A stretch of DNA of 64,000 nt from Glaucostegus cemiculus (taxonomy: Eukaryota). The stretch is taken from positions 29,884,001-29,948,000 of the forward strand of contig CDPCPM010000056.1 in the NCBI GenBank assembly GCA_976551045.1, written 5' to 3'. The position numbers were made by a program, and so were the translations under genes. The notes beneath the pieces are model-generated. The model did not search any database. It saw only the letters and a list, made by a program, of their open reading frames with translations, and was not told the origin of the DNA. Below, one piece after another: positions 6,924 through 63,089 of the stretch. Position 1 is the first letter of the stretch, and each line of letters opens with the position of its first letter.

Positions 6924-8585
6924 AAGACCATTAGACCAAGGAGCAGAATTAGGCTATTCAGTTCATCAAGTCTTCTCCACCATTCAAGCATGGCTGATTT
7001 ATCTGTCCCTCTCAACCCCATTCTCCTGCCTTCTCCGGTAGCCTTTGATGCCCTTACTAATCAAGACCCTATCAACCTCCACTTTAAGTACACCCAATGA
7101 CTTGGCCTCCACAGTCGTCTGTGACAATGAATTCCACAGATTCACCACCCTCTGACTAAAGAAATTCCTCCTCATCCCTGTTCTATAGGGATTTCCGTCT
7201 ATTCTGAGGCTGTGCCCTCTGGTCCTAGACTCTCCCACTACTGGAAACATCCTCTCCACATTCATTCTAACCAGGCCTAACAATATTTGGTAGGTTTCAA
7301 TGAGATCCCCCCTCATCCTTCTAAACTCCAGCGAGTAGAGACCTAGAGCCATCAAAAGCTCCTCATACATTAACCTTTTCATACCTGGGATCATTCTCGT
7401 AAACCTCCTTTGGACCATCTCAAATGCCAGCACATCCTTCCTTCAAATATGGGGCCCAAAACTGCTCACAATACTCCAAATATGGTCTGACCAATGCCTT
7501 GTAATGTCTCAGCATTACATCCTTGCTTTTATATTCTAGTCCTCTCGAAATTAACGCTAACATTGCATTTGTCTTCCTCACTATTGACTCAACCTGCAAG
7601 TTAACTTTTAGGGAATCCTCCACTAGGACTCCCAAGTCCCCTTGCACCTCTAATTTCTGAATTCACTCCCCATTTAGAAAATAGTCTATGCCTTTATTCC
7701 ATTACCAAAGTGCAAGACTGTATACTTCCCTACACTGTATTCCATCTGCCACTTCTTTGCCCATTTTCCAACCTGTCCAAGTACATCTGCAGACTCCCTG
7801 CTTCCTCAACACCACCTGCCCCTCCACCTATCTTTGCATCATCTGAAAACCTAGCCACAAAGCCATTATCCAGATCATTAACATATAACATGAAAAGTAA
7901 TGGATCCAACATGGACTCCTGCATAACACCACTAGTCACTGGCAGTCGACCAGAAAATGCCCCCTGTATTTCCACTCTTTGCCTTCTGCCAGTCAATCAA
8001 TTTTCTATCCATGCTAGTACTTTTCATGTAATACCATGGGCTCCTATCTTGTTCAGCAGCCTCATGTGCAGCACCTTGTCAAAGGCCTTCTGAAAATCCA
8101 AGGAAACAACTTCCACCGACTCTCCTTTGTCTATCCTGCCTGTTACTTCCTCAAAGAATTCAAACAGATTTATCAGGCAAGATTTCCACTTCAGGAACCC
8201 TTGCTGACTTTGGCTTATTTTATTATGTGCTTCCAAGTACCCCAAAACCTCATCCTTAATAATGGACTCCAACATTTTACCAACCACTGAAGTCAGGCTA
8301 ACCGGCCTGTAATTTCTTGTCTTTTGCCTCCTTCCCTTCTGAAAGAGTGCAGTGATATTTGCAATTTTCTAGTCCTCCAGAACCATTCCTGAATTCGTGA
8401 AAGATCACTACTAATGCCTCCACAATCTCTTTGGCTAACTCTTTCAGAACCCTGAGGTGTAGTGCATCCATTGGTAGGTGACCCAGGAATGAGGAACCTA
8501 GGTGACTTATCTATCTTCAGACCTTTCAGCTTCCCAAGCACCTTCTCATTAGTAATAGTGACTACAGTCACATCTGCCCCCTGAA
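6924..8585 (-). mobile_element. 5'-truncated CR1-clade LINE (HER1-like), RT pseudogene with 3' UTR
   Basis: Frameshifted ORF pieces carry CR1 RT motifs: GKMLESIIKD, SQQGFLKWKSCLINL, LDFQKAFDKV, SGVMQESMLDPLLF, FSDDAKIGG, DLGVLVE, ALVRPYLEYCEQFWAPY, VQRRFTRMIPG, RRMRGDLIETY, RTRGHSL, FFSQRVVNLWNSL. Confidence 0.95.
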
Positions 8586-31004: not shown

Positions 31005-31592
<588 letters not shown>

Positions 31593-59640: not shown

Positions 59641-62368
59641 CAGTCCTAACTTTTAAAAGTCTCTAGCTTCTCTTACAGTTTTGTTATCATTTCCATTTGG
59701 TTATACCCATTTTTTGATATTAGAAATTTCACTTACCGGAAAGAATTAAAAGACAATATGTCTTCAGAAAGAAGTTTGAAAGGATTCTGGGGACATAGGA
59801 AGACAATCAGCATGCTTATATTAGTGATTTATATTTTAAGTGTAACTTGGGAATTTAATAATGTTAAGTGTGTCAATTGGAAGGCAAATGGTGATAATTG
59901 GAAATGTGACATTTGAAATTATAACATTACTTTGAACTGGATGTGGCTCTGCAAACAATAAATTAAGGTGTAGGGCAATCTTCAGGCGAAGTTGCATACG
60001 GGACAAGAGTGGTAATTAGACCAAGGAAGGAAGATGTAATTCAATTCTTATTTTGAAGGAATATACTCTTTCCTTCTATTATGGATTCCTACATCCATGT
60101 TTGCTTTTTATCCTGTCTGTGTTAAAATATCATGCTTCTGGCATAACCAGTATCACTCCCCTTAGGCAATTTATCTGAGAGAGGTGAGGGATTTAAAAAA
60201 AACCCTTGAATTTAAAGAAAAAGTACTGTGAATTTCTTCTGCGGCCTCCACAGAAATTAATGTAACCTACCAGAGTCTGAATTGGTTGGCATCACCACAT
60301 GCATCTAGCTTCCATAACTAAGAAGATATGCATTAAGGATATATAGTTACATTTCCTATTTAGATTAAACAGTAGCAAATGAAGCACATTCCTTATTCAA
60401 AACTTCCTAAGAGTTGGATATGGAACCTGGAACAAATCAGTATTTGCCTAAATGCTTCCCCTAAGATAAAATAAGTGACTTTGTGATATTTTAACATAAG
60501 ACCTTACAGAACTAATATCCTCAGATGTAGTACAGATCTATTCAAAGCGTAAAGGAGGGATTCAGAATTATCCAGCCTGCTCCTGAGGGAGAATTCTGAT
60601 CAATATATGTGTATTTTAAAGGCACAGTGTGAGAATTAACTTCAGGCAGGCAATATTTGGATTTTATCACCTGAAATTTTATTATATAGCCCAATTGAAA
60701 TAAAGTTTAATGCAATGGCTAAAATGTAAGAGAGGCCATGGTGAATTTTTCACATTCATTTTTATAATAACAAATATCAGAATTCATATCAATAACATTT
60801 GATTATAAATCAAAACAAATTATTATAATCTATATAAGTCTAATCAGCCAGGCATTTATAGATTTATGTGTAATTTTCTGTTTCCTGCCTTCGAAGGCGC
60901 ATTGATTAGTATTGTAAAAGAGACTCATGCCCAAAAAAATAAGCAAAAGAGGTCATTATTTCAGTTAAGAACCATGAGAGGTACAGCAAATATGGACATA
61001 ACTAAATTTCTTAGCTTAAATGGCATACCAAAGCTAAAGGAGATGAGGAAAAAATGCTGATTTAAAACTGAAATTTCAAAATATCTTACTGTGCATACTA
61101 GTCTATCTGTACTGCATAATCCCTTCAAAACTGTTATAAAGGGAATAAAAAATGGGAGAAGGAAAGATTGTTAGAGGGAAATGTTAAGGAACAGGATAAA
61201 AAGGACAAAAGACAACTCAAGTATAAAAGAAACAGGAAAAGAGCACCTAAACAGATTATAAAGCTTCATTTACTATAAAGATTCATAGTGTATACAAGCA
61301 GCATTAGAATGGATTGTAATTTATGCAAGAAATTTATCTTCCGGAAGTCTGAGTTTGAAAAGAAAACAATCAAAGTAGTATGTACACAAGAAACTTGGCA
61401 ACGAACCGGATGGCAAACCACATACTTTTGCATCATTTAGATGGTTATCACTTGTGGTGATATGGTTCTAAGACTTTAGCACCTGCTTTCAATCCACATC
61501 CAACTGAAGTGTGATTAGCAAAGCGCTGCATGTTACTACCTGGGAACAAGAGTGCCTTTTACTAATTTCAGCACAAATCCTGATAACATGATATAGGTTG
61601 GAAAATCTTACCAGAGCAAGACTCAATAAAAAACAGTACTGAAACACACACCTGTTACTCAGCCAGGGACAATGCTTGAGTGTAATCTTCTACAATGATC
61701 TGAGAAAAGAGTTTTTCTATACTTTCAGGTAATTACAATATCACATTCTGTAACAGATTGTTACTGGGCCAGAAATAGCAACCTCCAGAACTAATGAATA
61801 AACAACAAATGTTAGCTTATCCCTTTTTGAAACGCTAGCATCCTTTCCAGTGACATGAAATATAGGCCTTGTCATAAGCACATGAAATAAGATGTAATTA
61901 GATTCGTTCAATAATACTTCACTTGAATGACATCCAATTTCTCAAAAGTCCCAAATTAAATGATACAAAAACATTCTCCATGACTTTGTAGCATGTTTGA
62001 CTTCATCATTTTTGGCATCAAATTTGTACAATGATATTTCATTTAAAAGTACCAGGAACTTGATTTTGTAATGTCTAATGTTTCTGGATTTTCACTTGAA
62101 GTTGACGATTGCTCTAGTACAGGTCCATTTTCAGGAACTTAATCAATGACAATGGTTTTTTTTGTCTCAGTTTCAGATGAAAATCACTAAAAATGTTACA
62201 TGTCAATTTGAAAACAAGACAGAAATCTGGTCGCACTTTCGAACTGTTACCGCCTGTGAATTTTGCAATAGGTGGGAAAAAGAGGCCTATTGTTTTCGAT
62301 CTTAATCCTTGGGTGCAGCCAGGCAGTTAGTCTTGAAACTAACTGAGTCTTGAAATTGTGTTCAATTT

Positions 62369-62806
62369 TGTTGTCGTGGCTATCCCTCGAGGTCGAGGAT
62401 GATGGTCTTCATTCCGTTGATCTATGTATGGGCTCTCAAGTGGCTTATGAGTCCAATCTTGGCTCATACAGAGAGAAGACACCCGTGTGTGTATTTGTTT
62501 AACATGTACTTGATATGGCACTACAAAAAGCACACAATACTTCACAAATCAACCAACTGATTCCAATGGCACGGAAACCACGACGATTAGAGCTGATGGA
62601 TTTGTTGCAGCCTCCATCCACCTTCACAGCTGTTGAGTTCGAAGTAACTTCATCTGTCTGTTCCACCACTGAGGTCTTGGTTGGATTGTCCTTTGTCAGA
62701 GACCTCATCATCAACCTTACCGCCATAGCTCCAGACAGCATTGCTCTCGGGATCTCAGAACTACACAAGCTTCTGCACCACAACAAGGTGACAATCCACG
62801 GAGAAG
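62369..62806 (-). mobile_element. Non-autonomous RTE-derived retroelement (RTE 5' end + 3' end), 438 bp
   Basis: Perfect 9-bp flanking direct repeat GTTCAATTT (62360-62368, 62807-62815). The 5' part GTCACCTTGTTGTGGTG...CTGACAAAG resembles RTE/BovB/Expander 5' ends. The 3' part CATCCTCGACCTCGAGGGATAGCC plus ACGACAACA resembles RTE 3' ends. Confidence 0.75.
62683..62806 (-). ncRNA. Candidate HDV-like ribozyme fold at the element's 5' end
   Basis: Nested order P1 CUUCUCC, P2 GGAUUGUC, P3 ACC, L3 UUGUUGU, P3' GGU, P1' GCAGAAG, P4 GAGAUC/GGUCUC, J4/2 CAAAG, P2' GACAAUCC. P1 has one mismatch, and G1 and a canonical P1.1 are not seen. Confidence 0.5.
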
Positions 62807-63089
62807 GTTCAATTTCACCCCATTTTGACAATATGAAGTTTCAACCAAATACCCTTGCAATTTCATTAGAAAAGCCCAAAGTTAAAAGAGCCATCACTTG
62901 AAAACAGTGTAAACAATTGGGGCTCTAAGAAATGTTAAACTTTTAGTATATTTCTATTTTGAACCATGAAATATAAGTTTCAACTCACTTAACCATCATT
63001 CATTCACATCAAGCATAGCTACTAGAAATTCTATTGCATGGCAATGGGTACATGATATGATTAATGCATTGGGGCATCATCAACTGTTT

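Follow-up and report, generated by a model that had tools for sequence, protein, structure and literature searches.

A decayed, internally deleted RTE LINE derivative with a candidate HDV-like ribozyme head in Glaucostegus cemiculus

We have analysed a 64,000-nt window of the Glaucostegus cemiculus genome (assembly GCA_976551045.1, contig CDPCPM010000056.1, positions 29,884,001 to 29,948,000 of the forward strand), in which an initial annotation had delimited a 438-bp minus-strand unit between perfect repeats and proposed that it begins at a fold resembling the hepatitis delta virus (HDV) ribozyme. The unit and its repeats are present as described (Table 1). It is likely a decayed, internally deleted, non-autonomous derivative of an RTE long interspersed nuclear element (LINE), with an inherited HDV-like head that probably cut the RNA before its first nucleotide, C1. 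This reading rests on four findings. The ends match those of a parent element, target-site duplications (TSDs) terminate at nucleotide 1, deletions arose separately more than once, and the fold covaries between families.

A search of the source genome with the unit returned 1,206 candidates, and all 40 of those scored match at 81-100%, most over the full span, defining a multicopy unit with sharp common ends. The genome contains 234 exact matches to a 25-nt head pattern, versus none to the reversed control, and the pattern is found in 15/30 and 7/29 copies recovered by other routes; these figures give an estimated family size of ∼500-1,200 dispersed copies. Mean divergence of the 30 best copies from the majority sequence built from them is 6.8%, the window copy differing by 7.0%. 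The first 30 of the 234 pattern matches comprise 28 bipartite short copies, one parent and one truncated copy. In the short copies the 5' part ends at nt 360-371 (21/28) or at nt 427-453 (7/28), and the 3' part restarts 45-165 nt before the element end. By our count these 28 copies contain ∼18 junction types, four of which occur in 3-4 copies each, indicating that derivatives arose many times and that some were copied again. Nested intermediates exist between parent and short copies, and the junction of the window copy recurs among the own-genome matches, a sample biased by the query. The short copies are thus a swarm of separate deletions and not the single SINE-like (short interspersed nuclear element-like) family previously envisaged. 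A tripartite derivative was also observed (L062, L071 and L252, with L062 and L252 being one locus), composed of untranslated region (UTR) to nt ∼427, 26-39 nt of parent nt ∼2040-2074 and the tail. At one copy, L004 (L004:1501-1997), an organism G contig of run X13 joins the flanks without the element, this evidence for an empty site being a single contig at a depth of 4.6.

The parent was reached by walking outward from the junction. Of 20 loci fetched, six span 3.85-4.37 kb with both ends, two of these being one duplicated insertion, and parent copy L112 carries a 14-bp TSD. All six are broken, with no intact parent among the long copies recovered; the longest open frame, of 456 aa, contains a reverse transcriptase (RT, PF00078). 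Homologues of the parent open reading frame (ORF), at most 76% identical, are mostly ∼1,060 aa in length with an apurinic endonuclease (APE, PF03372) and RT (PF00078), and the homologue with the best E-value, the intact P0002, terminates with the finger motif still present in the window copy at 62463-62422. The parent 5' UTR is 682 nt. Identity between window-copy nt 1-339 and parent nt 1-359 is 83% with the 21-nt gap counted, while the 3' part matches the parent 3' end at 88-98% over 89-96 nt in 6/6 long copies. The family therefore joins the opening ∼360 nt of a decayed ∼3.9-kb RTE LINE to its closing ∼45-165 nt, bearing out the expectation of a multicopy bipartite derivative with common 5' ends and a partner RTE in the same genome. 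Its description as non-coding is accurate in that the unit is ORF-less, although it retains, within its last ∼95 nt, the 13 codons that close the RTE ORF. RTE elements characteristically have a single APE and RT ORF, lack ORF1 and measure about 3-4 kb. The parent matches this architecture in its own length and in the size and domains of its homologues, and appears to belong to the RTE clade on the basis of this organization and of 5' UTR identity to printed Repbase families, rather than of a tree.

The top PF00078 matches, considered as candidate parents, were discarded: the 20 fetched of 150 scored are other LINEs, which we take to be L1-, Tx1- and Rex-like, without the shared head or tail. 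A search with PF20049 returned no matches, as did its controls. The long parent copies cluster on contigs C201, C293, C364 and C530 (G000; L090-L111, L121), where L111 and L121 have identical flanks, and this clustering points to segmental duplication. Elsewhere in the genome, many near-identical RT matches lie in 1,143-aa frames (G000, L031-L050) and a second LINE family has frames of up to 1,263 aa, suggesting young or active LINEs.

The position of the 5' end was examined at 72 loci, 30 of which were picked for full-length similarity, a choice favouring intact ends. Both ends are kept at 55 loci, and 42 of these have a TSD of 7-14 bp. The TSD ends exactly at P1 nucleotide 1 in 26 of the 42, overlaps it by 1-3 letters in nine and falls short by 1-5 letters in seven, corroborating the claim that the element begins at the ribozyme fold. 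Loci fished with an internal motif start at nt 1-4 in 21/30 cases. We rejected the idea that the target supplies a G to serve as nucleotide 1, as position -1 is A in 20, T in 19, C in nine and G in seven of the 55 loci; without a preference for G at -1, the C is nucleotide 1. Capped RNAs leave an extra G, and neither of the two copies with a TSD one letter short has one.

In the majority sequence of 30 copies the head follows the nested order P1-P2-P3-L3-P3'-P1'-P1.1-P4-J4/2-P2', with supported helices. P1 lies at the RNA 5' end and pairs at 7/7 positions; the six of seven pairs initially reported hold for the window copy and not for the family, C62775 reflecting decay of a position that is G in 28/30 copies. 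P2 consists of a C-G pair, one bulged base and then 7 bp, the perfect 8-bp helix described earlier having made use of a changed base (G in 2/30). P1.1, for which the CC/GG form had been noted as lacking, is one pair between the G at L3 position 3 (G62784) and C62769 just after P1, followed by a U.U. The family head is 145 nt with a branched P4 of ∼90 nt, and the base GAGAUC/GGUCUC assigned to P4 likewise used a changed base, in a copy whose P4 is shortened by a 21-nt deletion between two ATG repeats. The tail taken to be of ACA type actually derives from an (ACG)n repeat through CpG decay. The coordinates of P1, P2, P3 and L3, the C at 62695 and the 3' hairpin were all seen in the sequence as annotated. 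The predicted catalytic C in J4/2 is found in 29/30 copies and 14/14 aligned heads. In L3 of the window copy, which has one CpG change, the U20 and G25 equivalents are kept together with the P1.1 partner. This copy also has a P1 pair broken at 62775, an altered P2 bulge base and the 21-nt P4 loss, and it is probably weak or dead. The suggestion of either a variant fold or a decayed copy was correct on both counts in part, the deviations from HDV being conserved family features in a copy that has also decayed. Core columns vary less than the remaining UTR (53/1,538, 3.4%, versus 362/7,301, 5.0%; p = 0.01), a weak difference as alignment ends are clipped.

Support for the HDV-like fold extends beyond the source genome. 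An 18-nt core motif matched at least 92 metagenome stretches, of which 80 were examined; because this motif prescribed P3, L3 and four letters of P1, heads of the canonical type were beyond its reach. A test of P1, P2 and J4/2 outside the motif was passed by 20/80 loci compared with 69/16,000 shuffles. In total, 55 of the 80 loci, in 11 groups, were judged head-bearing, the other 25 resembling chance matches or truncated heads, and four head-bearing groups have RTE-homologue protein matches downstream. In 15 aligned heads, two own and 13 foreign, P2 changes on both sides at 7/8 pairs and P1.1 at 1/1 (G-C in 10, A-U in five). The covariation score of 0.625 was reached by 0/500 shuffles, slid controls gave ≤0.11, and 98.8% of cells pair. 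P1 starts with C1-G37 in 12/13 representatives; when the best register is chosen, pairs 2 and 3 show compensatory changes. U20 and G25 of L3 are kept, in the foreign heads because the motif imposes them, and variation in P3 was seen solely in the printed RTE1-N1_LA (PMC5786205). Four loci (L207, L161, L170, L188) contain a very compact version of the same fold with a P4 of ∼15-50 nt and are candidates for minimal ribozymes. A short element with the same head (L131, L137, L152-L154 and related) follows (TG)n runs in 14/14 loci and ends in a pentanucleotide repeat in the two loci read out; it is possibly microsatellite-targeted.

The head does not conform to the canonical HDV ribozyme, having C1-G37 in 12/13 representatives in place of G1.U37 and R22-Y38 in place of the C-G polarity of P1.1. 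It agrees with the L1Tc/ingi type, as compared with the text of the papers, in its C1 start, G37-C38 and single-pair P1.1. L1TcRz, common to the LINE L1Tc and its short derivative NARTc, is an HDV-like fold at the exact 5' end, as here; it cuts before C1, has G37 followed by C38 and a single-pair P1.1, and is active in vitro (PMC3185411). The deviations of the present head therefore match a known active type. C1-G37 with a flipped P1.1 had been considered a new ribozyme variant, an idea that was dropped as L1TcRz already has this arrangement (PMC3185411). A follow-up in trypanosomes describes a differing orientation of the P1 G-C pair and an earlier search descriptor that was too strict (PMC4035085). 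The L1Tc and ingi/SIDER ribozymes belong to the Ingi clade of trypanosomatids and are 77 nt with a small P4 (PMC3185411, PMC4035085), whereas the present head is from an animal RTE and is longer, with its branched P4. Promoter activity has been shown for the L1Tc 77-nt segment (PMC3185411).

The CPEB3 ribozyme starts at G1. It shares with the present head an L3 of 7 nt and a weak P1.1, in which a single Watson-Crick pair is accompanied by U.U, and differs in its C22-G37 polarity, short P4 and location outside RTE elements (bioRxiv 10.1101/2022.09.22.508989). Drosophila R2 SIDEs likewise combine a ribozyme with the parent 3' end and are moved in trans, but are rare and specific to a site in rDNA (PMC3414825), unlike the dispersed copies with 7-14 bp TSDs described here. 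In the route proposed for the present family, which resembles that of NARTc/L1Tc and of the R2 SIDEs, a read-through or nearby transcript would be cut before C1, and the resulting RNA would have no cap and a structured 5' end at a fixed position. The APE-RT protein of the parent would then bind the tail hairpin and repeat in trans, and target-primed reverse transcription would insert the copy, leaving a TSD of 7-14 bp.

Several observations weigh against this interpretation. All core pairs are intact in just 9/30 scored copies, and HDV needs G1.U37 (PMC1874588). None of the Rfam ribozyme models matched the window or any of 10 further heads, even with E-values as high as 10 allowed. The 13 foreign heads used for covariation were chosen by eye from the 80 loci, and their P3, L3 and part of P1 were dictated by the search motif. 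No RTE-named protein was returned among the parent homologues, so that the clade call leans on architecture and 5' UTR identity. RNA reads from organism A, the kinship of which to the source genome is not established, cover copy L004 in both orientations, and reads running from its head into the upstream flank number 19, 31 and 49 in three runs. No pile-up of read starts was observed at the L004 head in these runs, in which strand is unknown and copies are mostly decayed; with old copies and unknown strand, the reads neither show nor exclude cutting. For the window copy itself, no RNA run was listed as carrying it.

The uncleaved reads are also compatible with a reading to which we give a low probability, in which the same bipartite derivative starts at nucleotide 1 because a Pol II promoter inside the 5' UTR dictates it. 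The fold would then be a ribozyme that is slow or vestigial, maintained because it protects the end or helps to initiate translation. The 682-nt parent 5' UTR favours such a promoter, as does the single 77-nt segment of L1Tc that acts as both promoter and ribozyme (PMC3185411); bipartite LINEs are treated as Pol II transcripts by Kojima 2018 (PMC5786205), and the 5' break at or beyond nt 360 in 28/28 short copies could mark a needed promoter region. However, the catalytic C, U20, G25, 7-bp P1 and P1.1 are kept in distant families, the extra G is missing from both copies in which it could be sought, and ribozyme and promoter can coexist. The diversity of junctions and the nested intermediates raise a different alternative, that short copies never spread as units and that each arose once, by template switch or deletion, during insertion of full-length RTE RNA. 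This we regard as improbable: the four recurring junction types lie at different loci with different flanks, and the recurrence of the window junction, query bias included, agrees with them, so that renewed copying must have taken place for some derivatives at least. If the unit were a Pol III SINE, or an unrelated repeat that folds this way by chance, the silence of the Rfam ribozyme models would be accounted for. The probability of this is negligible, as the whole unit aligns to both ends of the RTE parent and the fold covaries; the unit lacks the tRNA, 5S or 7SL head and internal A/B boxes of a Pol III SINE, no tRNA being found and no A or B box being detected by simple pattern.

Cutting by the inherited head remains the preferred explanation. 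An extension of it that we offer tentatively and consider rather doubtful is that an L1Tc-type ribozyme (C1-G, single R-Y P1.1), missed by Rfam, would be active and would represent the 5' end ancestral to a wide range of animal RTE elements, including curated crocodile, coelacanth and afrotherian families, and that short derivatives keep arising at one UTR position since it pairs with the 3' tail, guiding a jump of the reverse transcriptase. Evidence on the pairing, which would set the junctions, is at most suggestive. Pairing of the 5' UTR with the tail in single decayed copies does not exceed that of shuffles. When majority sequences are used, the six UTR windows out of 216 that pair best with the tail overlap the break cluster, an overlap matched by 138/1,000 tail shuffles and 82/1,000 UTR shuffles, and the 30-nt UTR window ending at the break has average tail pairing (511/1,000).

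Elements of this type are already known, and a single window copy matters little. RTE1-N1_LA / RTE1-N1b_LA, RTE-N2_Lch, RTESINE1/2, WALLSI3 and Bov-A likewise join RTE 5' and 3' ends with the ORF deleted (PMC5786205). These bipartite derivatives differ from the present family, in which many junctions coexist, in their parent family and tail (PMC5786205). The elephant RTE1-N1_LA (397 nt), folded by eye, has a homologous head with the same L3, G22-C38 and C-N-A-A; its P1, P2 and P3 differ from those of the present family and it is independent of the core motif (PMC5786205). RTE-3_Crp nt 24-151 differs from the family majority at 16/128 positions, ∼87% identity by eye, and the 5' ends of RTE-7_PM, RTE-14_Lch and RTE-1_Crp, Repbase entries seen as printed fragments only, resemble the head, those of RTE-7_PM and RTE-14_Lch being called homologous (PMC5786205). 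In the part available, Kojima 2018 links bipartite RTE derivatives to ribozymes only as predictions of Ruminski et al. 2011 and does not fold the heads (PMC5786205), and a review likewise reports RTE ribozymes (PMC6765202). Novelty is lower than initially suggested: no publication on the family itself was found in a literature comparison that did not extend to Repbase and Dfam, and the type is already represented by L1TcRz, Repbase RTE 5' ends and RTE1-N1_LA. The family provides a convenient test set tying the trypanosome L1Tc ribozyme type to curated vertebrate RTE heads missed by Rfam, and its natural deletions mark the minimal RTE RNA ends as about 360 nt plus 45 nt. As RTE elements are under development as gene-insertion tools, UTR optimisation included (PMC13708176), knowledge of how the RTE 5' end is formed is of practical use.

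Table 1. Parts of the insertion in the window; strand and basis are given where available
Feature	Position	Strand	Basis
TSD copy, 5' side of element	62807..62815	.	exact 9-bp repeat
TSD copy, 3' side of element	62360..62368	.	exact 9-bp repeat
Whole element, internally deleted non-autonomous RTE derivative, 438 bp	62369..62806	-	genome copies
P1 5' strand; C62806 = nucleotide 1, predicted end of cleavage product	62800..62806	-	
P2 5' strand	62790..62797	-	covariation
P3 (3 bp) and 7-nt L3 (62780-62786)	62777..62789	-	copy majority, foreign heads
P1 3' strand; C62775 breaks one pair in window copy	62770..62776	-	G in 28/30 copies
P1.1 3' partner, C38 equivalent	62769	-	G-C or A-U across heads
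J1.1/4 and branched P4 domain; 21 nt missing between 62724 and 62723	62696..62768	-	
J4/2, C-N-A-A, predicted catalytic C at 62695	62692..62695	-	C in 29/30 copies
P2 3' strand: G, one bulged base (62690), 7 bp	62683..62691	-	majority, covariation
Remaining retained parent 5' UTR, to parent nt ∼359	62468..62682	-	alignment to parent
Deletion junction, parent nt ∼359 to nt ∼3768 (∼3.4 kb gone)	62465..62468	-	comparison with parent copy L112
Last 13 codons and stop of RTE ORF, second half of C2H2-like finger	62422..62463	-	C-terminus of homologue P0002
3' UTR hairpin, 5 bp	62385..62398	-	fold
Short (ACG)n-derived tail	62369..62377	-	copy comparison

An exact 9-mer repeat in the same geometry as the TSD occurs at 27/63,480 window positions, and the flanks of the window copy match only their own locus among the loci fetched. 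The RTE protein probably recognises a signal that includes the 3' UTR hairpin. Elsewhere in the window, an exon of a nuclear factor I gene is present at 31005-31592 on the minus strand, with PF10524 and PF03165 above cut-off, the element lying ∼31 kb upstream of it on the same strand. A decayed reverse-transcriptase fragment from a different LINE occupies 7829-8404, also on the minus strand.

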